Virus record (IMG/VR): IMGVR_UViG_3300008266_000118
DNA length: 64,000 bases
Direction: 5' to 3' (one strand)
Source of the DNA: a virus
Shown: one piece after another, positions 12,070-56,309 of the stretch
How the letters are laid out: every line of letters begins with the position of its first letter
Numbering within the stretch: the first letter of the stretch is position 1
The notes under the pieces: generated by a model
The model's database searches: none
Told to the model about the DNA's origin: nothing
Seen by the model: only the letters and a program-made list of their open reading frames with translations
Program-made: the position numbers and the translations under genes

Positions 12070-15000
12070 CTATTTAAATAGAGACCTAAATATGTTTCTA
12101 AATTTAGTTACAGCACCTAGAATGACTATATACACAGAGCTTTCTACTTTTACAACCCCATACTGACCTATAGGCTGATTGCCTGCATATTTATTGAAAG
12201 CACCAAACCAATTGTCAAAACGCTTCTGAAAAGTCGTAACCGTATGCGGGAAAACCGTATCTCCATTCACGCTGATAGCCACGGTAGGGTCTGTAAAAGC
12301 ATACCCTTCACCGACACTTAAACCTGCACTGAGAAACCTCTTATCTGACATCCCATTTTTATTTACCACAAAAGATACCCTAAATATTGAAGCACCTGCT
12401 CCTAGATAATCTAGAACGCCTGTTCCGCCAAAAAGCTCATATATCTGATTAAAATCAACTATGCTAGGCTTTGGAGCTAAAGTCATGTTCTGATAAAAAA
12501 AGTATCTAGAAGGAACAAAAGAAGCAAAGGTTGAGAAGTTATTTGTCCTCTCATTGAATAATAGAGTCTTACTATCTGCACCCCAAGTCATGATAACAGA
12601 TGCGTGTTCTATATCAAAAACCTGAATCATATCGTACTCAGAATCGGCATTCATCGTCAAGAAGAACGAGCGCATACTATTCTCATCACTCAATACTTTT
12701 ATGCCATCTCCCCCATACCTACAGTACTTTTTAAACTCAGGAGAGAACCAATACAAGGTAGAATTTCCATTATTATTATTACCTACAAGTACGCAGGTTT
12801 GTAGACCTGTTCCGTAGGTAGATATGATATTCTCCCTTTGGTTATATACACCTCCCGTGCCAATCAATACTTCCCCTCCACCCTGTGTTCCTATAGCCAC
12901 ATCTGAAAGGTATGGCAAAACAGAAATAGCTCTAGGCTGTATAGATACCATGTAATTATTCACATCTCGTATAGCAGCAATATTTCCGTTCTTTGTATCC
13001 AAGTCCCTAAAGTCAAGCGCCAAAACCTTTCTATAAAAGTCCTGCAATGAATTGACGGGCTTCTGCTGAGAGTAGTATATGCGAGAAATAAAATTAGATT
13101 CAGAAGGTAAATTTGGATTGTATGCCGTTAACTTTAATGGATACTTAGCAGAAAAACCATCATCATAATTAAACTGCTCCTCTACTACATCTGAAATCGT
13201 TTCAAATGGAAATAAGTAGCTAACTATATTCTCATGACCAAACAAATTGTATGTGGTCTTATCAGAGGTATAGTCATTATACAACATTTGAGTATTTATC
13301 TTCTGTTGACCATAATAGGCTATAAAGGAAGTACGAATGCTTGTAGCGTCAAAGGTAGACCAATACCTAATCTTCAATATACACTTTTGCGTGTATGTAT
13401 CCCCACCAAAAACATCTAATGCAGGGCATACTCCTGTAGACAATTCATTTACATTTAAGTATGTACCTGTTGGCACTATATTAATCGAAAATAAATCATA
13501 CTGCTCTCCAACTACAGGTCTGATGTATTGAGCATAATACAAACCGTTATCAGATGCAATGGTATTAGGCACTAAGCACCCTGAAGTAGCTAAAGACATA
13601 TTCTCCATTGAACCTGAAGCAGAATTGTATACATTTATGTTTGGTCTGTATTTTAAAGAAGTACTTCTGATGGAAGGTATACCTGAATTAGGCTCTCCAA
13701 CTGCTTCTTCAAAGTTAGTGTAGCGACCATCAGTAACCGAAGCATCAATACCTTGAGCGGATTCTATTTCTCCATAATATTCTGCATAAGAACCTAATTG
13801 ACTACCATTTGTGGAGTATATACCACTTAAATTACTTAAAATCTTAGGGCAGTCGTAATATTTTAAAACATCCCCTGTACTAGGCTGCGTTTGATTAACC
13901 CTCGTATCATGAGAAAAGAACATTGAGAACAATCTTTCATCAGCTATTACGCTATATGTAGAACCATAAGCGCCATTACCTGTAGGAATAGATGCATAGT
14001 AACCTGCATTGTAAGCCCCTGCATTAAAATAATCTGCGGGCATTACAACACCTGTACCTAAAACGGTTGGATTACACTCTGCTCTCCATATTGAAACACC
14101 GTTGATTTGGTCTTTTATAGAAGAGACATCTAATCCTGATAAGATGGCGTAATAAGCGTAAGTCTCATAGGTATCTGCACCTGTACTAGACGTGAACAGA
14201 CTTATATCGTTTCCATCCCAATCGTTATTGAAGTAATCTATAAAGTAAGGAGAAGAGATGTAACCATTTTTGTAGTGAAAACGAGCAAATAAAGCGTATG
14301 TCTCATTCAGCATATACCCCACTTTAGTAGCGCAATTTACAGGCAATTGATACTCTCCAACCTTAGTTGAGTCAAAATCTTGAGCGCCAAGTGGTGTAAT
14401 CGTAAAACCTGAAGTTGAAGTTAAAAAAAGGTTTGTAGTTGAAGAAAATTTATAACTAGCACCCAAATAAACAATTTGACCTGCTGTTATGGAAAAAGTA
14501 ATATCAAAATTAGAATCTTTTTCAAACATATCTCCACTAGCAACTGCTACTCCATTTACAAATAACGACCATTTAAATGGCGCTAAAAGTTGTGCGACTC
14601 CACTATAACCAACACTACCTTTTATTCTGTAATTCCCTGTATTAGTGGCTGTCCAAAATCCACTTGAAGAACTATATTCACTAGCAGGGTTGTTTATAAT
14701 TTCAGAAAATTTTAATGGAGCGTTTATACCTGTCTGTTGAGCGTTAGATATTGGATTCCATGGAATCTCATCGCTACTAGGGTCAGCCGAAACCGTTACC
14801 CCTAATTCTGCTACCGAAACCAAAGCACCCACACCCTCCATGGCATACTTGCCTTGAGATATTGTAATGGCACTAGCAATAGCAGCTAAATCAGGGTCGT
14901 CTGCGCCAATCTCTAAATTTGCTAGATTTAACCTATTTTTCTTTATTTCTAGCGATTTTGCCTTTAAGATAACAGGGTCTGTTTGTGGCAAAAGTTCTGT

Positions 15001-16278
15001 ATTTAAAGAGGTAGTACCTGTCTCCGTACCTGTATGAGTTACGGTAAATTCAGAATCTGTAACATCAAAACGACCTACGATATAAGCGGTATTCGCACCA
15101 CCCGCATTGTAAATACAAGCAAGCTCTACAAAGTTATATATGTTAGGCAAAGCATTTTGAACTAATAAAACATTCGCTTTAGAAGTTATTGTTCCGCTCT
15201 TCTCTCCTTGAATCTTTATATAGACACTAGGAGTATTAATAGAAGCTTTAAAAACAGGTATAACATTTGGAGTTAATACACTCCACTCTGTCGTATTTTC
15301 TGTTCCATTCAATCCAAAGCGAACCGAATAGCGATAACCACCGCTCGGCAATGAACCACCTGACTGCAATTGGTCGCTATAAGTAACTAAGCCTGCATTA
15401 TTTATTAACTGCAAATTAGTTTGCTCGTTAGCCTCGTTGTAAATAATGTATCCCGAAGTAGGTGTATCCCAATCAACTATATTATACTTTGCAACACAAT
15501 CTTCTGTGTATGCTTCAGGTATGTACAATACCTTTGGCTTGTTCGTATTATCAGTCCAATATAAAGCCCACGACTGATTACTAACCTTCTCCACTCTAAT
15601 ATCAATAGCCTCTGTAGTAGGCAAGATAAAGCGCCATGTTCTCAATATCCTAACGTAAGACCATGTTACATTCTTTGTAGCAATACCTATCTCAATGGCG
15701 TTAGAATCTCCTGTAGTAGAAAATACAAACAATCTATTCTCTACATTCCAAGTGGTAATAGGGATTAACCTGTCTGCCGTATAAGCTTCTTGAACGACAA
15801 TCTCTTCCTGATACAATCCGTCTACCTGCCATAAGAAGGAAACACGCACAGGAGCTGAATTAAACTCCGTATAAAACACAAAAGAATTTCCATCTACAGA
15901 CAATTGGAAGTCTCCAACATCATACCCATACGATAACATTGTAAGGGTGAATAGGTCTGAAAATATGTAAAAGTCTGCATTATCAGCAGCATAAACAATG
16001 CCTTGACCTAATAGAGTGCCGTCAGCACCATAAAAATAAAAGGTAATATCTACGTTAGCTTCATAACTTAACTTTGTGTACTGAACGACATCTTCTATAT
16101 CAGGAATAGGAAAAGCTAGAGTAGAACTCTTCATAGGACTAATTGAGCTAATCCCGCTTTTCTCTGTAGACATGGTTTCAACATTAAGAGCATCAACATA
16201 TCTATCTGACTTAACTACTCTTAAATCGGAGTCGAAATCTAATCCGCCACCAAATGTATTTACCTGTACGTCTTGCAT
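12070..16278 (-). CDS. giant structural protein (1402 aa), probably tail/baseplate or adhesin
   Basis: long uninterrupted ORF in the structural module; promoter box 18 nt upstream of the ATG. Confidence 0.5.
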   Translation of the reverse strand: MQDVQVNTFGGGLDFDSDLRVVKSDRYVDALNVETMSTEKSGISSISPMKSSTLAFPIPDIEDVVQYTKLSYEANVDITFYFYGADGTLLGQGIVYAADNADFYIFSDLFTLTMLSYGYDVGDFQLSVDGNSFVFYTEFNSAPVRVSFLWQVDGLYQEEIVVQEAYTADRLIPITTWNVENRLFVFSTTGDSNAIEIGIATKNVTWSYVRILRTWRFILPTTEAIDIRVEKVSNQSWALYWTDNTNKPKVLYIPEAYTEDCVAKYNIVDWDTPTSGYIIYNEANEQTNLQLINNAGLVTYSDQLQSGGSLPSGGYRYSVRFGLNGTENTTEWSVLTPNVIPVFKASINTPSVYIKIQGEKSGTITSKANVLLVQNALPNIYNFVELACIYNAGGANTAYIVGRFDVTDSEFTVTHTGTETGTTSLNTELLPQTDPVILKAKSLEIKKNRLNLANLEIGADDPDLAAIASAITISQGKYAMEGVGALVSVAELGVTVSADPSSDEIPWNPISNAQQTGINAPLKFSEIINNPASEYSSSSGFWTATNTGNYRIKGSVGYSGVAQLLAPFKWSLFVNGVAVASGDMFEKDSNFDITFSITAGQIVYLGASYKFSSTTNLFLTSTSGFTITPLGAQDFDSTKVGEYQLPVNCATKVGYMLNETYALFARFHYKNGYISSPYFIDYFNNDWDGNDISLFTSSTGADTYETYAYYAILSGLDVSSIKDQINGVSIWRAECNPTVLGTGVVMPADYFNAGAYNAGYYASIPTGNGAYGSTYSVIADERLFSMFFSHDTRVNQTQPSTGDVLKYYDCPKILSNLSGIYSTNGSQLGSYAEYYGEIESAQGIDASVTDGRYTNFEEAVGEPNSGIPSIRSTSLKYRPNINVYNSASGSMENMSLATSGCLVPNTIASDNGLYYAQYIRPVVGEQYDLFSINIVPTGTYLNVNELSTGVCPALDVFGGDTYTQKCILKIRYWSTFDATSIRTSFIAYYGQQKINTQMLYNDYTSDKTTYNLFGHENIVSYLFPFETISDVVEEQFNYDDGFSAKYPLKLTAYNPNLPSESNFISRIYYSQQKPVNSLQDFYRKVLALDFRDLDTKNGNIAAIRDVNNYMVSIQPRAISVLPYLSDVAIGTQGGGEVLIGTGGVYNQRENIISTYGTGLQTCVLVGNNNNGNSTLYWFSPEFKKYCRYGGDGIKVLSDENSMRSFFLTMNADSEYDMIQVFDIEHASVIMTWGADSKTLLFNERTNNFSTFASFVPSRYFFYQNMTLAPKPSIVDFNQIYELFGGTGVLDYLGAGASIFRVSFVVNKNGMSDKRFLSAGLSVGEGYAFTDPTVAISVNGDTVFPHTVTTFQKRFDNWFGAFNKYAGNQPIGQYGVVKVESSVYIVILGAVTKFRNIFRSLFK

Positions 16279-45377: not shown

Positions 45378-45446
45378 AGATACTTTTTCCTAAGAAATAA
45401 AACAAACTTGCTTTTTTTATTTGGATTTGTCTTTTTTTTAAATATA

Positions 45447-45454
45447 CCTTTGTA
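45447..45454 (+). promoter_or_regulatory. -7 box TACCTTTG for the rightward replication operon
   Basis: TAnnTTTG in the divergent intergenic region 45378-45478. Confidence 0.4.
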
Positions 45455-45478
45455 GCCTAACGCCTAATCAATGCGAAA

Positions 45479-45706
45479 TTGATTATACATATTATGGCTT
45501 ACGAATTAATATTTAATTCTACAGAAAGAAGCGAAACCAATACTAACTTGGTTGTTCGTGTAAATCAGTTTAACGAGGTATCCCTCACAATTACAAATCC
45601 AAAAGACATTGACGAAGCAAAGTCGCATTGTGTTACTTTGGAGAAAACCGCAGCTATCAAGCTAGCTAAAGAACTTAGAAGACAAATTTCTTACTTACAG
45701 GACTAG
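45479..45706 (+). CDS. hypothetical protein (track start is TTG; likelier ATG at 45494)
   Basis: first gene of the rightward operon; TACCTTTG promoter box at 45447-45454. Confidence 0.4.
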   Translation: MIIHIMAYELIFNSTERSETNTNLVVRVNQFNEVSLTITNPKDIDEAKSHCVTLEKTAAIKLAKELRRQISYLQD

Positions 45707-45709
45707 TGT

Positions 45710-46327
45710 ATGATGTATGCTGTCAATCAAGACGGGGTAAAACACCTACCGTCTAAAGAGGGCGATTTCTACTGCCCCTGCTGTGATAGTAAGGTTGTGG
45801 CTAAAATGGGTAGTATCAAAATACACCATTGGTCGCACTTATCTTCTGAAATCTACTGCGAATCTCGCCCGATGTCTGAATGGCATTTGGAATGGCAATC
45901 TCATTTTCCACCTGAGATGGTTGAGGTTTATGTCAACAAGAAAAGAAGGGCAGATGTTCTCTTGCCTAACAATGTTGCTATTGAATTTCAAAACTCTCCT
46001 ATCTCACTAGAAGATGTTCTTGCTAGAAACCAACACCACAAGGATGGAGTAATATGGGTTCACAATTTTATAGAACAAACTCTTAACAAGCAGTTTTTTA
46101 ACAAAACCGAAGTGAAGAAAGGTTTGTATCGTGCCTTATGGAAAAACCCTATCCATCTTTTTGACAGGCAAAGGGTTAGAGGAGAAGAGGTCTACTTTCA
46201 ATTTTCTGAACAAACTTTAGGTAAAGTCTGTTGGGTAGACTACTCAACCAAACCTTACGCATCTTTCTCTTTCTACTTAAAAACAAAGAAAGAGTTTTTA
46301 TCAAACTTTAATTTACAGCCAAAATGA
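45710..46327 (+). CDS. CoiA-like nuclease domain protein
   Basis: N-terminal CPCC cluster and HHWSH ... EWHLEWQSHF region resemble the competence-protein CoiA family. Confidence 0.4.
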   Translation: MMYAVNQDGVKHLPSKEGDFYCPCCDSKVVAKMGSIKIHHWSHLSSEIYCESRPMSEWHLEWQSHFPPEMVEVYVNKKRRADVLLPNNVAIEFQNSPISLEDVLARNQHHKDGVIWVHNFIEQTLNKQFFNKTEVKKGLYRALWKNPIHLFDRQRVRGEEVYFQFSEQTLGKVCWVDYSTKPYASFSFYLKTKKEFLSNFNLQPK

Positions 46328-47025
46328 AAAAGGATACATATTATTTCCCCCACGATTTTAACGCTCACAATGATGAGAAATGTCTATGCCTGATATCCGA
46401 ACTCGGTATGCAGGGTTATGGTCTCTATTGGGCTTTTATTGAAGCTATGCATGAGACATCTGATGGCAGATTAAAAAACAACCTACTCAATGGTTTTTCA
46501 ATTAGGTTCAATACCGACAAAGAAATTCTACTGAAATTTTATAACACTGCTATAGCACTTGAGTTATTTGTTACAGATGGAGAATTTTATTGGAGTGAAA
46601 GAGTTTTGCAAAATAAGGAAGATTTTGACGAAAAAAGACAGAAAAAATCAAAGGCGGGACGGCTTGGAATGCAGGCTAGATGGGCGAAGAATAACAGTGT
46701 TATAACAGATGATAACACAACTATAACAAAACATAACAAAGGAAAGGAAAGGAAAGGAAAGGAAAAGAAAGGAAATGAAAGTAAAGAAAAGTATACCGAT
46801 TTCATCGAGAGTGTTTGTTTGATTACTAGCAAAAACTATAGAGGGGATAAAAAAAGTGAAGCAGCTTTCAATGCTAGGATGAAAGAAGGGTATGAAGTGG
46901 AAGACATTTTAGAGGCACTTGAAAATGCAATCAAGCAAGAGATTCACATCAAAAACAACTACAGATACCTAACGCCTGAATTTATTACAAGACAAGACAA
47001 AATCGAATTATACAAAAACAAATGA
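46324..47025 (+). CDS. DUF4373 (Lin1244/Lin1753-like N-terminal domain) replication-associated protein
   Basis: N-terminal YFPHDFNAHNDEKCLCLISELGMQGYGLYWAFIEAM matches the DUF4373 signature; contains a (GGAAA)5 microsatellite. Confidence 0.5.
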   Translation: MKKDTYYFPHDFNAHNDEKCLCLISELGMQGYGLYWAFIEAMHETSDGRLKNNLLNGFSIRFNTDKEILLKFYNTAIALELFVTDGEFYWSERVLQNKEDFDEKRQKKSKAGRLGMQARWAKNNSVITDDNTTITKHNKGKERKGKEKKGNESKEKYTDFIESVCLITSKNYRGDKKSEAAFNARMKEGYEVEDILEALENAIKQEIHIKNNYRYLTPEFITRQDKIELYKNK

Positions 47026-49082
47026 CAAAAATATCAATATACGAAAACAAGTGGGATACAACGAGCAAGTATACCATCACAATAGAGCAAGCATTAGCCC
47101 GAATTAAAGACGGCAAGCACAAAGATACCATACTCCATTTGCGAGCGATTGAATCGAAGGCTCAGTATGACATGGAGAAAGGTCTTTTGTCGGGTGTTTG
47201 TTTCTCAGGCACGTTTGAATCAAGGACAGATGATGGTCTTATCGAACATAGCGGTATTGCCTGTGTTGATTTTGATAATCACCCCAACGCCATAAAGCTG
47301 AAAGAGGAATTGACAAAAGACGAGTATGTCTATGCCTGTTGGCTCTCTCCTCGTGGAAACGGAGTAAAGGCATTAGTGAAAATCCCTGCGGAAAAGGAAA
47401 ACCACAGAAGATACTACGAAGCTTTGTTTGAAAGATATCCTGATTCAGATAAAACCTGCAAGAACGAGAGTAGGTTATGTTTTGAGAGTTATGACCCTGA
47501 CTTGTACTTGAACAAAGATTCAAAGCTATTCACCAAGTTCATAGAAAAGAAAGTGGTTGAAATGAAGAGAAGGGTTGAGACTGATGACGAAAAGGTTTTT
47601 GAAAAACTCATCACTTGGCAGTATAAGAGGTCTAGCCACTTTGAAAGCGGTAACAGGAATACTTTCATCTACACTTTGGCTTCAGCACTATGCAGGTGCG
47701 GGATTAATAAAAGTTCTGCCGAAAGTATGATAGTGTACAAGTATTCCATTGATAGCGATTTTAGTCAGAGCGAGATGATGACTGCCATCAATAGTGCATA
47801 CAAAACAAATGCCTCTCAGTTTGGCTCTAGAGCTTTTGATAACGAAGAGACATACTACAAGACCGTTGACATCAAGGGAGATATCAAAGCCTACGAGGAA
47901 GAGCAGTTTAACCTGACTGATGTTATCTTTGGGGATACCGAAGGTGTATTGGATGTATACCTGAATGGGTATGGCGCAGCAGAGTCTACATTCTTCCCTC
48001 AGATAGACCCAATATTCAAATGGAAAAAAGGGGATATTTCACTTATGTCGGGTATCGGTAATCACGGTAAATCTTCCTTTACATTGCAGTTGATGTTAAT
48101 CAAGTCAATCTACAACGGAGATAAATGGGCTTTATTCGTCCCTGAAAATATGCCTGCAAAGCTTTTCTACTCAGAGTTAACAGAAATGCTCATAGGTTGC
48201 TCTATAGAACCCGAAAACCCTCATAGACCGCATATATCTCAAATCGAACAAATACAGGAGTGGCTATCAGAACACTTTATCGTTGTTCACCCTGTGCAGA
48301 GCAAGCCAACTCCTGAATACATCAAATCTAAGTTCCTTGGTCTTATCATGAAGTACGGAGTAACAGGCATACTATTCGACCCATTCAACAAACTACTAAG
48401 GGATTATAAATCGGCAGGCGAAAGGGATGATAGGTTTCTTGAGGCTTTCCTGACAGACCTTTCTGTATTCACCAAGCATCACAACATCTTTTGCGTGATA
48501 ATCGCTCACCCAACAAAACTGTCAAAAGGACTAGACGATAAGGACTATCCTTGCCCAAATGTTTTCAATGTGGCAGGTGGAGCTTCTTGGAATAACGCCA
48601 TGGATAATATCGTCTTCTTCCATAGACCATTCAAGATTTCAGAACCAATGAACCCTCTATGTCAATTCACATCTTCTAAGATTAGATGGAAGAAAATTGT
48701 CGGACAAGAAGGTACGGTAGACCTGATGTACAACTTCAAGAAGAGGCGCTTCTACATTGACAATATGAACCCTTTGGAAGGAAATCCATTCAACTTCAAT
48801 ACAGAAATAGTTAAGTTTGATGATATCAAGTCTTCAGTATCTGTTAAAGGGGAGACCACAAACCCTTACGATATGTCGGAAGCCGACCACACCGAGATAC
48901 TAGCAAACTCCTTTGGACTAGAAAGTAGTATGAACAAGAAAGACTTTATGGTAAACATGAAACAGGTGATGCTTCAGTATAAGTACCCTGTCTCTAAGGC
49001 TACTGTGTTCAGGGATTACTATCTAAAAACATCTAAGATAGTCGAGCAAGAAGGCGAGTACGTCATGAATATTTTTGAATAA
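47022..49082 (+). CDS. primase-helicase-like P-loop NTPase (686 aa)
   Basis: Walker A MSGIGNHGKSSF and Walker B-like GILFDPFN in the C-terminal half; N-terminal primase-like region; replication context. Confidence 0.55.
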   Translation: MTKISIYENKWDTTSKYTITIEQALARIKDGKHKDTILHLRAIESKAQYDMEKGLLSGVCFSGTFESRTDDGLIEHSGIACVDFDNHPNAIKLKEELTKDEYVYACWLSPRGNGVKALVKIPAEKENHRRYYEALFERYPDSDKTCKNESRLCFESYDPDLYLNKDSKLFTKFIEKKVVEMKRRVETDDEKVFEKLITWQYKRSSHFESGNRNTFIYTLASALCRCGINKSSAESMIVYKYSIDSDFSQSEMMTAINSAYKTNASQFGSRAFDNEETYYKTVDIKGDIKAYEEEQFNLTDVIFGDTEGVLDVYLNGYGAAESTFFPQIDPIFKWKKGDISLMSGIGNHGKSSFTLQLMLIKSIYNGDKWALFVPENMPAKLFYSELTEMLIGCSIEPENPHRPHISQIEQIQEWLSEHFIVVHPVQSKPTPEYIKSKFLGLIMKYGVTGILFDPFNKLLRDYKSAGERDDRFLEAFLTDLSVFTKHHNIFCVIIAHPTKLSKGLDDKDYPCPNVFNVAGGASWNNAMDNIVFFHRPFKISEPMNPLCQFTSSKIRWKKIVGQEGTVDLMYNFKKRRFYIDNMNPLEGNPFNFNTEIVKFDDIKSSVSVKGETTNPYDMSEADHTEILANSFGLESSMNKKDFMVNMKQVMLQYKYPVSKATVFRDYYLKTSKIVEQEGEYVMNIFE

Positions 49083-50388: not shown

Positions 50389-50474
50389 GGAGAGGTGGCG
50401 CAATTGGCAGACGAGCAGATAGGCGATAATATCAATAGGATGCGGGTATGCAGGTTCGAATCCTGCCCTTTCCG
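50389..50474 (+). tRNA. tRNA-like element, 86 nt, type-II length, anticodon arm not resolvable
   Basis: acceptor GGAGAGG/CCTTTCC (one G-U), D-loop AATTGG motif, canonical T-arm GCAGG-TTCGAAT-CCTGC; manual 5-7-5 search finds no anticodon stem-loop. Confidence 0.45.
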
Positions 50475-51924: not shown

Positions 51925-52044
51925 TATTTATTTCTTCTTGCTCATCTTAGCCATCATCTTCGCTTTCATTGCCTTCTTCATTGGAGCAGGCATCTCTTTG
52001 GCAACTTTCTTAGCAGCTACCATCTTCGATTTCATTGGTGTTTT
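51925..52044 (-). CDS. 39-aa Lys/Met-rich repeat peptide, absent from ORF track
   Basis: MKTPMKSKMVAAKKVAKEMPAPMKKAMKAKMMAKMSKKK; encoded over an 18-bp direct DNA repeat; shares the MKTP N-terminus with the upstream gene. Confidence 0.25.
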
Positions 52045-52072
52045 CATTGTGTTTTATTTTTTGGGTTTTGGT

Positions 52073-52681: not shown

Positions 52682-53188
52682 CTACATACCTTTCTTCACC
52701 ACGGCTTCCGTCTTGGTAATATTCTCATCTATCTTATCGTAAAAGCCTTTCCTATTCCCACAGAAAATAAAGAAAGGGTTGACCCAATACTCAGACTGCC
52801 CCTTCTTCATCAAGAAGAAAGATTCAACCAATTCCTTTATCCCTTTAGAAGCAGTAAAGCGTGAGATGCCTAACTCCTTCTGCAATCTAGAGTGCTTCAG
52901 ATTTATATAGTCCGTATTCTCCCCTAAAGAGTAGATAATAAACAAAAGGACATCCCTACCATTCTGACCTAGCATACCAAAGATGATGCCCTTAACCCTA
53001 CTCGGTCTAAAGACACTTGTATGCCTAGGGCTGTCCATAAAAAAGACCTCAGACTTCGTCCCATGTCTCTTCGTAGCTATACCACTATCAACCCTATTAG
53101 GGTCTACAACATGATAATCCTTTACTATCTCAATACAGGTTAGCTGAAAAGTAGGATTCTTTACAAAAGGATTTATATCTTCTTTCAT
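52682..53188 (-). CDS. winged-HTH DNA-binding protein (candidate replication initiator/regulator)
   Basis: HTH-like LQKELGISRFTASKGIKELVE; gene sits beside the iteron-like repeat region. Confidence 0.4.
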   Translation of the reverse strand: MKEDINPFVKNPTFQLTCIEIVKDYHVVDPNRVDSGIATKRHGTKSEVFFMDSPRHTSVFRPSRVKGIIFGMLGQNGRDVLLFIIYSLGENTDYINLKHSRLQKELGISRFTASKGIKELVESFFLMKKGQSEYWVNPFFIFCGNRKGFYDKIDENITKTEAVVKKGM

Positions 53189-53475
53189 TTTTTATACCCC
53201 ATCTCTATGTTATAATACCAATCACTAAGACCTGTACTCTTCTCTACAATCCTAATACCCCGATGACCTATCTTAACACAACAATCTTTAGAAAAGACTA
53301 CATCATCACAGTAAGAAACAGTAAAGCAATCAATACTATCCAACCACTCTTTCCATACCTTTTTATCCCATGCATTAGGATTCTCTACATCATTATCCAA
53401 TGCATCCCTATCATAAAAAGGTGTAGCACGTTTTTTCATCTTACCTATGTCCATACAAAAACAAAGATACAGCAA
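53185..53475 (-). CDS. hypothetical protein
   Basis: 96-aa ORF; first gene of the leftward operon from the divergent region. Confidence 0.4.
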   Translation of the reverse strand: MLYLCFCMDIGKMKKRATPFYDRDALDNDVENPNAWDKKVWKEWLDSIDCFTVSYCDDVVFSKDCCVKIGHRGIRIVEKSTGLSDWYYNIEMGYKK

Positions 53476-53685
53476 ATGTTGATTCTAGCAAACATGGCTC
53501 TATGATTATCAGGCAGTTAAAAAGTGCTAAAACATGCAAATGTTGAAATTGATTTTTATAATCACCTCTATCACACATCTTTACATCACACTCTCGTATC
53601 TATTGTATATACTGCAATGTTACCTTTTACAATACTTGCCATACATCCGTGCTTAAAAAAAACGGTGTGTTCAAAAAAAATGTAT

Positions 53686-53835
53686 GTGGTGTAGGTGTAG
53701 GTGGTGTATGAGACGTAGGTAAGGTTTTTATGTATGGCATAGATGCTATATGAGATGGAGGTATAGATATTGCATGAGATGTGGGTATCATACAAGATGG
53801 AGGTGAAATTGTAGGCGCTATATGAGATGGAGATA
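53686..53835. repeat. iteron-like degenerate direct repeats (5x YATGAGAYGKRGG, plus GTAGGT x2 and a 16-bp exact pair 72 bp apart)
   Basis: copies at 53707, 53749, 53773, 53793, 53821; GCTATATGAGATGGAG at 53745 and 53817. Confidence 0.5.
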
Positions 53836-54024
53836 ACCCCACCTCACCTGCGGTCGCTGCCCCTCGAAAAAAAATACCCGTACCCCTATTTCGTGTTTTC
53901 CTATTTTGGGACAAAGTTTCATATTGAGGCTATCGTCCTATTATGAATCACAAGTTTCAAATTCGGTTTATAGTTTCATTTTGGTGTCGATGGTTCAAAA
54001 TGGGAGATTTAAGAGAATACCCAT

Positions 54025-54123
54025 CTACCTGCTACCTGTTTAGACTCATTCTAAATTAACATTTTATTTGCTTTTGTGGTTTATTTTGATATATGCATAT
54101 GCTTGTTTAGAATCATTATAAAT
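54025..54123. promoter_or_regulatory. candidate origin/regulatory region: CTACCTG x2, a 19-mer direct repeat GTTTAGAnTCATTnTAAAT x2, and an AT-rich tract
   Basis: 19-mers at 54038-54056 and 54105-54123; the flanking sequence is very AT-rich. Confidence 0.4.
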
Positions 54124-54350
54124 AAAATATTTTTTTCTGCTTTTGTATTTTTATTAGCCTGATTTTCAGGTAGTTAGATAAATAAATGTATAGTGTATAG
54201 TTTTGAGGACACTTTATTTGATTTGGTGACCCTATCTTGCAGGTGTATTTGAGGGGTTAGGGTTTGGGGTTGTTCTATTGATAGGTTTGAGTGTGGGCGA
54301 AATGCTTTATCCTAAGTGGCTTCAAACCTTTGTTATGAGTTCTTATATTT

Positions 54351-54806
54351 ATGAAAAAAACCAATACAAGCGCGAGCGAAAGCAGCGCGAAAACTACCAA
54401 GGTAGTTGCAAATGTGCCTGTTAAGAAAGCCAATGAGTTCAAGCAAAAGGGAGCGAAAGCAGAGGTAACAGAGAAAAAAGCAAAGGTGTTAAGTGACCCA
54501 AAGGTTCTTTATTTGGCAGAGGGCAAAAAGGGTAAAGACTTAATGAGCGCCAAAATTGAATCTAACAGATTGAACAAAGCGGAATTAAAAAGTTTGTCAT
54601 TTCAAATTAAGCAATTCCAAAAGCATGGCAGTGTTTTCTTGTCAACCTTTCGATTGGGCAGAATGGAGGATATAACGCCAAAAAATCTGATTCCGCACAT
54701 TGGAACAGGTGACGCAAAGAGACAGGCAAAAAATGGGGGTAATTGGTCTTATTACATGCTTGAAACGTGTGTGGCTAATTATTACAAAAGCAAAGCGAAA
54801 AAATAG
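54351..54806 (+). CDS. hypothetical basic protein
   Basis: 151-aa ORF, first gene rightward of the divergent region. Confidence 0.4.
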   Translation: MKKTNTSASESSAKTTKVVANVPVKKANEFKQKGAKAEVTEKKAKVLSDPKVLYLAEGKKGKDLMSAKIESNRLNKAELKSLSFQIKQFQKHGSVFLSTFRLGRMEDITPKNLIPHIGTGDAKRQAKNGGNWSYYMLETCVANYYKSKAKK

Positions 54807-54842
54807 GTTTTCGGTTCGAGGGGTTCGAGTCCCCTCTTTGCT
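54789..54842 (+). ncRNA. truncated tRNA-like minihelix (acceptor + hairpin + T-arm; no anticodon arm); may also act as a terminator
   Basis: acceptor AGCAAAG/CTTTGCT, hairpin CGAAAA-AATAGG-TTTTCG, T-arm AGGGG-TTCGAGT-CCCCT; overlaps the stop of the upstream CDS. Confidence 0.35.
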
Positions 54843-55443: not shown

Positions 55444-55492
55444 AGGAGGAAATTGGTGTGGTGGGTTCGATTCCCACCTCCTCCTCAAACCA
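55444..55492 (+). ncRNA. tRNA-like minihelix (acceptor + D-loop remnant AATTGG + T-arm) followed by ACCA
   Basis: acceptor AGGAGGA/TCCTCCT 7 bp perfect; T-arm GGTGGG-TTCGATT-CCCACC; trailing CAAACCA. Confidence 0.35.
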
Positions 55493-56216: not shown

Positions 56217-56289
56217 AGTCAGGTGGCGAAATTGGTTAAACGCTATGAGCGATGGCTCTATTGTGCAGGTTCGAATCCTGTCCTGACTG
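56217..56289 (+). tRNA. tRNA-like element, 73 nt, degenerate anticodon arm
   Basis: acceptor AGTCAGG/CCTGACT 7 bp perfect; GCG-AAATTGG-CGC D-arm; T-arm GCAGG-TTCGAAT-CCTGT; the middle region folds as GAGC-GATG-GCTC with no 7-nt anticodon loop. Confidence 0.4.
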
Positions 56290-56309
56290 CAAACCAAATA
56301 AAAACAAAC

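Follow-up and report, generated by a model that had tools for sequence, protein, structure and literature searches.

A candidate RepL-type origin and autoregulatory region in the longest non-coding gap of a freshwater crAss-like phage

Introduction

The replicons pHW126, pIGRK and pIGMS31 of Gammaproteobacteria encode a winged helix-turn-helix (wHTH) Rep protein that is reported to be distantly related to RepL of pSN2, and their minimal origin, as determined by experiment, comprises a conserved region and, ahead of rep, four iteron-like repeats of 20 bp. The Rep protein binds these repeats as well as related inverted repeats at its own promoter, autoregulates its expression and nicks the DNA beside the conserved region (bioRxiv 10.1101/2022.12.05.519187; PMC2831885). 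A layout of this kind is considered here for an 896-bp non-coding gap at positions 53455–54350 of the IMG/VR virus record IMGVR_UViG_3300008266_000118, whose 64,000 nucleotides, referred to as the window, cover nearly all of the ~65-kb genome of a single crAss-like phage from freshwater. The gap separates a leftward operon, which encodes a RepL-like protein, from a rightward gene. The kinship of the two Rep proteins is remote, with only ~10% identity reported between pHW126 Rep and pSN2 RepL (PMC2831885). RepL proteins of the pSN2 family (Pfam PF05732), which occur in Firmicutes and others, are helix-turn-helix (HTH) proteins of ~18–19 kDa with conserved N, P and G residues (PMC5703833, PMC5779722).

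A RepL gene has also been associated with replication in crAss-like phages. RepL-domain open reading frames (ORFs) were placed at strand-switch points in the original crAssphage paper (PMC4111155), and a preprint has predicted an origin directly upstream of repL, with read coverage in support, and has proposed a phage-plasmid lifestyle for crAssphage (PMC10983915). The same preprint equates the crAssphage protein with RepL of phage P1, which belongs to a different family. In P1, oriL lies inside repL and needs an internal AT-rich tract, with no iterons known (PMC9948254).

The gap in the window is read here, with a probability of roughly 0.4, as a cis-acting region that provides a PF05732 RepL module with both its origin and its autoregulation, much as in pHW126 and pIGMS31. 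This reading is favored because the gap, the longest non-coding stretch of the genome, holds a direct-repeat array that is unique in the genome and whose motif recurs only as an inverted copy beside the promoter, and because it also contains an AT-rich tract of low stability. The architecture is conserved in relatives and the array is invariant within the species; the adjacent protein is a PF05732 member whose plasmid homologues are annotated as RepL; two RepL plasmids and one metagenomic locus (L084) carry repeats upstream of a RepL-type gene; and the layout recalls both pHW126-type origins and the origin predicted upstream of repL in crAssphage. Under this reading, the RepL-like protein would bind the repeats, and binding at the array would nucleate an initiation complex, with the DNA opened or nicked in the adjacent conserved block or in the AT-rich tract. 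The RepL operon would be autoregulated through the inverted copy near the promoter, to which the protein would also bind, while palindromes in the AT-rich part would probably double as operators for the rightward operon. What the analysis establishes is the arrangement of the elements with their statistics, how far they are kept among relatives and the family to which the protein belongs, and it is from these that we infer protein–DNA binding, origin activity and promoter activity at the locus.

The Gap and Its Direct-Repeat Array

The next longest non-coding gap of the genome measures 334 bp. An initial annotation of the window had proposed a candidate replication origin in a divergent region of about 850 bp, counted from an operon start at 53475. 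The divergent gap is real, but the leftward operon most likely starts at the ATG at 53454, with which the start codon of relatives aligns, and not at the TTG at 53475; the gap is therefore taken as 53455–54350. Its features are listed in Table 1.

Five copies of a 14–15 bp motif (plus strand ATATGAGATGGAGGT) occupy 53706–53834, with starts at 53706, 53748, 53772, 53790 and 53820 and hence spacings of 42, 24, 18 and 30 bp. They include a 16-bp exact pair 72 bp apart, as had been reported, and the array is nearly devoid of G on the RepL-sense strand (nearly devoid of C on the plus strand). A position weight matrix (PWM) scan of the 64 kb has returned these five copies as the sole plus-strand matches above 20 bits. 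A second PWM, combining the window copies with the repeat units of relatives, was scanned against both strands and gave six sites of at least 14 bits, namely the five copies and one inverted copy, the only such site outside the array. The score of the inverted copy was reached by 2 of 2000 dinucleotide shuffles of the promoter-proximal block. It lies 70–85 bp upstream of the −33 promoter element and constitutes a candidate autoregulatory operator.

A looser search for ATGAGATGGAGG with at most two mismatches found 18 occurrences in the 64 kb against 3.8 expected, the 13 matches outside the array being scattered. The three strongest of these, which were the ones checked, all lie inside ORFs, and a dispersed phage promoter motif was rejected on this ground. 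A cluster of inverted copies beyond the G-tract/T9 block adjoining the array was also rejected, the PWM scan having given no match of at least 7 bits there, the strain-specific segment of 27 bp included. The minus-strand ORF across the repeats had been regarded as a probable translation artefact, and this is borne out, as no ORF across the array is conserved in nine relatives and a real protein-coding ORF can be rejected; in the window the 95-residue frame stays open because all repeat spacings are multiples of 6. Mini-ORFs (MRWR/MRRR) following GGAGG within the repeats were dismissed, being likewise not conserved in relatives.

On the far side of the array from the RepL operon, the AT-rich tract may serve as a DNA-unwinding element (DUE), as the promoter region for the rightward operon, or as both. 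Its guanine-plus-cytosine (GC) content of 19% over 54037–54156 is the third lowest in the window, and it contains the third least stable 100-bp segment, at −107 against a mean of −125.7 kcal/mol with a standard deviation (SD) of 5.7, a difference of ~3 SD.

Table 1. Positions of the elements in and around the 53455–54350 gap, with the repeats of two plasmids for comparison; positions are those of the window unless another record is named.
Feature	Position	Strand	Description
RepL-like gene	52682–53188	−	168 amino acids; wHTH; PF05732 family (pSN2-type plasmid initiators)
orf89, first gene of leftward operon	53185–53454	−	89 amino acids; no family match
Bacteroidota-type promoter of RepL operon (predicted)	53462–53492	−	−33 TTTG (53489–53492), 19-nt spacer, −7 box TATCTTTG (53462–53469)
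Direct pair, copy 1	53472–53482		GCAAATGTTGA; reads TCAACATTTGC towards repL
Top-conserved island of promoter-proximal block	53503–53522		RepL-sense TTTTAACTGCYTGATnATCA; 9-bp palindrome TGATnATCA
Direct pair, copy 2	53536–53546		GCAAATGTTGA; exact, 64 bp from copy 1
Inverted array-motif copy	53565–53578	+	CCTCTATCACACAT; between array and promoter; 14.8 bits
Conserved island	53590–53611		RepL-sense GTATAT..ATAGATACGAGAG; ATACGAGA invariant in all variants
Spurious ORF	53627–53914	−	95 amino acids; called by no gene caller
Direct-repeat array	53682–53834	−	five strong copies and a degenerate copy at 53682; core CCTCCATCTCATAT; all facing repL
G-tract/T8-9 block	53836–53912	−	RepL-sense GAAAACACGAAATAGGGGTACGGGTATTTTTTTTCGAGGGG...GGTGGGGTTA; abuts array; invariant alignment columns
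27-bp indel site relative to other same-species strains	54008–54009		window lacks AAGTCTCATCCTCGTCCATCCGTCCCA, present in six other assemblies
AT-rich tract	54037–54205		19–22% GC; ~68-bp duplication (operator and T-rich segment)
Palindrome, copy 1	54039–54055		17 bp, operator-like; TTTAGACTCATTCTAAA
Palindrome, copy 2	54106–54122		17 bp; TTTAGAATCATTATAAA; 67 bp from copy 1
Rightward gene	54351–54806	+	151 amino acids; lysine-rich N-terminus; no family match
Plasmid repeat, Priestia, 5.0 kb	470–513 of L089		22-bp repeat
Plasmid repeat, Bartonella, 8.8 kb	354–395 of L090		21-bp repeat

The RepL-Like Protein and Its Operon

The wHTH protein beside the gap had been named as a possible initiator, and family searches point the same way. 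It matches Pfam RepL (PF05732) with 24.5 bits (E = 2.2e-5), the gathering cut-off being 20.3. An exhaustive search has yielded 316 representative relatives, and 43 of 70 aligned family members match PF05732 separately, the best with E = 1.3e-9. The AlphaFold2 model of the protein has a wHTH core and a predicted local distance difference test (pLDDT) score of 87.7, and residues N137, P138 and G144 are invariant in the family, where they form part of the motif YWxNPxxxFxGNR. A tblastn search against plasmids returned eight records, 5.0-kb and 8.8-kb plasmids among them, in which all matches are annotated as "replication/maintenance protein RepL"; identity to these plasmid homologues is ~27–34%. 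No HUH-type domain was found in the protein by a family scan, and it is neither of the Rep_3/RepA (WH1-WH2) type nor of the lambda O type.

In the window, orf89 sits as an insertion precisely at the junction of the conserved promoter/ATG with the RepL-like gene. The ORF is identical in same-species contigs and is found only in the window's species, being absent from all relatives with 80–89% RepL identity, whose RepL ATG aligns with the orf89 ATG. The putative promoter of the operon, detected by a motif scan, has its −7 box 7 nt before this ATG and is kept in most relatives, with degenerate forms in the two closest (L026 and L027).

Conservation Among Relatives and Strains

In relatives whose RepL-like protein is 80–89% identical, the elements upstream of the RepL-like gene occur in the same order as in the window: the divergent gene is followed by AT-rich DNA with one or two palindromes, a G-tract/T8-9 block, the repeats, a ~170-bp block and the promoter. 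The G-tract/T8-9 block (RepL-sense GGGnnGGGGTATTTTTTTTTG...GGGTAGGGGTTAC) abuts the array in every lineage. The number of repeat units is variable, with a core (CCTCTATCTCATAT) that is kept though the spacers differ. Three islands have been detected in the ~170-bp block, ATACGAGA, AACATTTGC and TTTTAACTGCYTGAT, the last with a TGATnATCA palindrome, as well as a second AACATT(T/A)G that is less well conserved, and the promoter reads TTTG-N19-TAYCTTTG, ending 7 nt before the ATG. The promoter-proximal block is ~72% identical between lineages, as against ~78% for the coding sequence (CDS), a pattern of constraint islands amid diverged sequence. Within the window's species, the five-copy array is identical in six independent assemblies, and the whole 896-bp region differs only by the 27-bp indel and a few single-nucleotide polymorphisms. 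The initial annotation had held that repeats not conserved in related phages would speak against an origin; motif and architecture are in fact conserved there, although the number of copies is not.

Comparison with Known Replicons

The locus shares with pHW126-type replicons a small wHTH protein, AT-rich DNA, and the order of a conserved block (here the G/T9 block), same-orientation repeats, an inverted copy with the promoter, and rep. The correspondence between the G/T9 block and the conserved region (CR) of pHW126 is one of analogy, not homology. There are also clear differences, in that the window has a 14–15 bp core with irregular spacing in place of four regular 20-bp units, its relatives have ~0-1 to 6 copies, and the inverted copy is not conserved. 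In addition, no ssi element (single-strand initiation site) has been identified in the window, and the module is carried by a phage of 65 kb, where an additional gene separates the promoter from rep.

The pSN2-family plasmids resemble the window in the size, HTH and conserved residues of their RepL, in a non-coding region before rep and a short ORF after it, and, in two small plasmids, in tandem 21–22 bp repeats upstream of repL. They differ in being plasmids of 2–9 kb of the rolling-circle class, with a double-strand origin (dso) and a single-strand origin (sso), whereas the window is from a phage of probable Bacteroidota host with a protein only ~27–34% identical to theirs. The 600 bp upstream of ~50 RepL-like genes on viral and metagenomic contigs were compared with shuffled controls, and only the window proved clearly above the shuffles (5 copies against a shuffle maximum of 3); upstream repeat arrays are thus not supported as a family-wide feature of RepL-like genes. 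One metagenomic family member, L084, has four repeats phased at 22 bp that lie 39 to 139 bp upstream of its RepL-like gene, and in the two small plasmids an exact tandem repeat pair occurs ~100 bp upstream of repL (Table 1).

crAssphage (Carjivirus communis) is likewise crAss-like, with a RepL-domain gene at a strand switch, a predicted origin upstream of repL and a second candidate origin elsewhere. Its origin has been predicted from Ori-Finder, GC skew and nanopore coverage, with no description of repeat anatomy (PMC10983915), and similarity to the window's RepL-like protein is undetectable by tblastn.

Classical iteron origins, such as P1 oriR/incA with RepA, pPS10 and the lambda ori with the O protein, also have at least three same-orientation direct repeats beside the initiator gene, an AT-rich tract and, in the P1 annotation, inverted partial repeats at the promoter for autorepression. 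Their iterons, however, measure 17–22 bp and are phased at ~11 or 22 bp, often with DnaA boxes and an immediately adjacent DUE, and their initiators are of the Rep_3/RepA type with two winged-helix domains or of the lambda O type, unlike that of the window. On phasing, DnaA boxes and initiator type alike, the locus falls outside the class of classical iteron origins.

The lytic replicon of phage P1 (RepL/oriL) has the name RepL in common with the window, and it too is a phage-borne accessory replicon, dependent on transcription of the rep operon. P1 RepL, in contrast, has no PF05732 match and aligns to the window's family over the HTH only (hhalign probability 36%). The RepL-like gene of the window has no marked AT-rich minimum apart from its 5′ end (~29% GC) and is not among the ten lowest-GC windows. 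Judged by its sequence, the locus is not a P1 oriL-type replicon, and under the name RepL the crAss literature runs together two families that are unrelated, those of P1 RepL and pSN2 RepL. Since P1 RepL falls outside PF05732, the relevant precedents are pSN2-type small plasmids (PMC5703833, PMC5779722) and not P1 oriL. PF01719 is cited for RepL in one preprint.

Weighing the Origin Reading

Several observations weigh against an origin at this locus. The repeat spacings correspond to 4.0, 2.3, 1.7 and 2.9 helical turns and are not helically phased, and no DnaA box (TTATCCACA with at most one mismatch) was found in 53400–54400. The number of repeats ranges from ~0-1 to 6 in close relatives. The nearest of them (89%, L026) has one unit and the next (85%, L027) no clear unit, and contigs with an identical RepL-like protein (P0002) and identical flanks carry ~1, 2, 3, 5 or 6 units. 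Not every lineage therefore needs a multi-copy array, unless repeat collapse has lowered the counts of the low-copy contigs, which are short-read assemblies. The inverted copy is not kept at its position in relatives, upstream arrays are absent from most of the ~50 distant RepL-like loci, and no PF05732 origin has been biochemically defined (PMC5703833). In fold searches, the regulators CodY, CRP and MarR were matched at least as strongly as initiator winged-helix domains. The very AT-rich stretch of the initial annotation does exist, but it is not unique, with comparable tracts at 2.8 kb, 38.8 kb and 45.4 kb; it lies at least 200 bp from the array, and other segments of the genome are less stable.

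The cumulative GC-skew analysis advised in the initial annotation has placed the minimum at ~45.5 kb and not in the gap, which also counts against an origin here, although GC skew in this genome simply tracks gene orientation. A second replication module occupies 45378–49082 and encodes a CoiA-like nuclease, an initiator of the Lin1244_N/Phg_2220_C (DnaD-like) type and a primase-helicase with BT4734_N, PriCT_1 and AAA domains; the divergent gap beside it at ~45.5 kb is AT-rich and has no direct repeats. On account of the skew minimum and this complete module, the main lytic origin may be at ~45.5 kb, in which case the 53455–54350 locus would be a secondary plasmid-type origin at most. The origin reading of the initial annotation is thus partly supported, by real repeats beside a RepL-family gene in a conserved architecture, while helical phasing, DnaA boxes, a constant copy number and a GC-skew minimum at the gap are lacking.

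The main competing explanation holds that the gap is purely a transcriptional control region of two divergent operons, in which the RepL-like wHTH protein or another regulator acts as a transcription factor while replication starts elsewhere. The two 19-mers 67 bp apart that had been listed as a repeat pair are present, but each has turned out to be a near-perfect 17-bp palindrome (consensus TTTAGAAT-N-ATTCTAAA), operator-like and not a direct-repeat iteron. One or two copies are kept in relatives, 135–205 bp upstream of the divergent gene, and such classic dimer operators more likely control that gene than act as iterons, a further point against the origin reading. A conserved host-type promoter abuts the operon ATG, and its TAnnTTTG box is a genuine signal in this genome; the conservation islands of the promoter-proximal block are of the kind seen in regulatory DNA; and the regulator-like folds, together with a separate replication module and skew minimum at 45.4–49 kb, would fit a locus devoted to transcription. 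Nonetheless, the protein scores above the Pfam cut-off for an initiator family, with plasmid homologues that are rep genes of small plasmids, the repeats lie 250–380 bp upstream of the promoter, beyond typical operators, and an array with one inverted copy at the promoter is an iteron-type or pHW126-type layout. Purely transcriptional control is only somewhat less probable than the origin reading.

It has also been considered that the array is a neutral, fast-evolving minisatellite in an ordinary long promoter region, arising, through slippage or unequal recombination, from a unit that other lineages carry as a single functional copy or without function. The variation in copy number between identical flanks is what such a process would produce, as are the irregular unit lengths without helical phasing, the lack of arrays at most RepL-like loci and the breaks of several contigs in this region, as variable repeats would cause. 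Against a neutral repeat stand a motif core that is conserved across lineages at 80–89% protein identity while the spacers differ, an array that is invariant in six independent same-species assemblies and always anchored to the same G/T9 block, and a single orientation for all copies and one inverted copy near the promoter. This explanation is regarded as unlikely.

Less probable still is a long non-coding RNA or a structured leader RNA. Long intergenic regions with high transcription are known from the early region of phi14:2, a crAss-like phage (bioRxiv 10.1101/2020.03.07.982082). The gap is the longest gene-free stretch of its genome, and its plus strand folds slightly better than shuffles (z = −1.89). 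There is, however, no Rfam match even at E ≤ 1 and no folding signal in the promoter-proximal block (z = +0.62) or on the minus strand (z = −0.72), and the central part is G-only/C-only, which makes hairpins impossible. A known RNA family or stable RNA structure was accordingly not found by Rfam or by folding against shuffles, and the phi14:2 analogy was rejected, as that region (L025) shares no repeats with the window and has no comparable neighbor genes, its own being without family matches.

Finally, the gap could be where the two physical ends of the genome meet, at direct terminal repeats or a packaging site from which both flanking operons point inward. This is highly improbable and was rejected, for although both flanking operons point away from the gap, several relatives' contigs end at most 650 bp upstream of repL and short repeat arrays occur beside the terminal repeats of T7-like phages, the contig ends are scattered (−177, −289, −293, −399, −496 and −647) with no single position, and same-species contigs of 45–63 kb and a 13-kb relative span the region and end elsewhere.

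Other Elements of the Gap and Its Surroundings

The inverted motif copy, the G-tract/T8 block, the GCAAATGTTGA pair and the Bacteroidota-type promoter abutting the ATG had not been part of the initial annotation. For the upstream copy of the GCAAATGTTGA pair, AACATTTGC is invariant in 10 distinct variants; in the promoter-side copy AACA.TT is kept and 3 positions vary. The sequence of the top-conserved island is CTGCTTGATTATCA in relatives, as against CTGCCTGATAATCA in the window; it may recall the nick sites of rolling-circle replication (RCR; CTTGATA/CTTG/ATA) in double-strand origins of the pC194/phiX174 type, which lie in a conserved element upstream of rep and are served by an HUH/Tyr initiator, but the resemblance extends over a 6-7-mer only. 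The G-tract/T8-9 block gave no hairpin, terminator or Rfam match. It contains a degenerate TCCCAAAATGGGA palindrome at 53899–53911, which is found once in the window and 3–5 times in some relatives (upstream regions of L001 and L005), and a similar pair, GTCCCAGAATGGGAA, lies upstream of a distant RepL-like gene of 31% identity (L018, 2165–2198).

Among the shorter motifs listed initially, the two CTACCTG copies (54025–54038) and the CCTGA-TTT-TCAGG hairpin (54158–54170) are both present, and GTAGGT was counted three times instead of twice. Scans for sigma-70 promoters and intrinsic terminators gave results at chance level. A telomere-like G-tract run (GGGGTTAGGGTTTGGGG, 54253–54269) lies 80 bp upstream of the rightward gene and does not occur in relatives without an insertion. 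In some relatives the divergent gene and the AT-rich tract are separated by an insertion of ~600 bp (L010 ~1600–2250, L026 ~100–600, L029 ~80–600), which ends in a tRNA-like 3′ end (GGTTCGATTCCCTCACTGCTAGCC, divergent-gene strand) and may be an intron-containing tRNA or another structured RNA.

In the window, tRNA-like elements have been noted at 50389–50474, 54819–54833, 55461–55477 and 56217–56290; they comprise one Rfam tRNA match (30 bits) without an ARAGORN call, two fragments similar to a T-arm or 3′ end, and one tRNA called as His, whose anticodon ATG is unusual. Where the rightward block and the RepL operon converge, the gap between their ends holds a direct repeat of 35 nt (51949–52049), its copies being 80% identical and 66 bp apart.

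The Phage and Its Host

The crAss-like nature of the phage is indicated by a 1402-residue protein (gene at 12070–16278, minus strand) that matches the Crassvirus muzzle protein (PF25731, E = 1.4e-44), and a portal and a large terminase are also present in the genome. The product of the rightward gene is 100% identical on at least 18 contigs, the longest of 64,879 bp, and the gene order is the same in the 45–63 kb contigs of this species. At ~64.9 kb, the genome that carries the muzzle protein is small for a crAss-like phage. Proteins of 1850 and 1311 residues lack the DFDxD motif, and a virion RNA polymerase was not identified. The relatives come from freshwater metagenomes; no close DNA or protein relatives were found among deposited phages, and none were found in IMG/VR with a single protein as query.

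The host probably belongs to Bacteroidota, because the primase-helicase has a BT4734-like N-terminal domain and because the TAnnTTTG box, the −7 box of Bacteroidota, is enriched upstream of genes. This box occurs within 70 nt upstream of 18 of the 64 genes on the sense strand, but of only 1 of 64 on the antisense strand; for random positions the figure is 4.6%. Eight genes share the layout of the RepL operon, with the box 4–7 nt ahead of the ATG, so that their mRNAs would be nearly leaderless. The boxes occur mainly upstream of structural genes on the minus strand and of the RepL operon; they are missing from most rightward genes, which suggests that these depend on another polymerase or promoter class.

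Implications for crAss-Like Phages

The locus bears on how crAss-like phages replicate and how they persist in the absence of lysogeny. A RepL-driven phage-plasmid lifestyle had been put forward for the gut prototype alone, with no description of cis-acting anatomy. The present locus offers a compact and precisely delimited candidate for such anatomy, comprising an array, an inverted promoter copy, a flanking block, an AT-rich tract and a PF05732 initiator. Separating P1 RepL from pSN2 RepL also changes which experimental precedents apply. As a speculative extension, to which little probability is attached, the RepL module and its array could form a functional plasmid-type replicon with which small environmental crAss-like phages would persist as phage-plasmids in a carrier state, apart from a lytic origin at ~45.5 kb; the lineage-specific number of repeats might then adjust the copy number, or set apart incompatibility groups in strains that circulate together. 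Taking into account that the locus is delimited and that natural variants with ~0-1 to 6 repeats exist, the hypothesis is directly testable.

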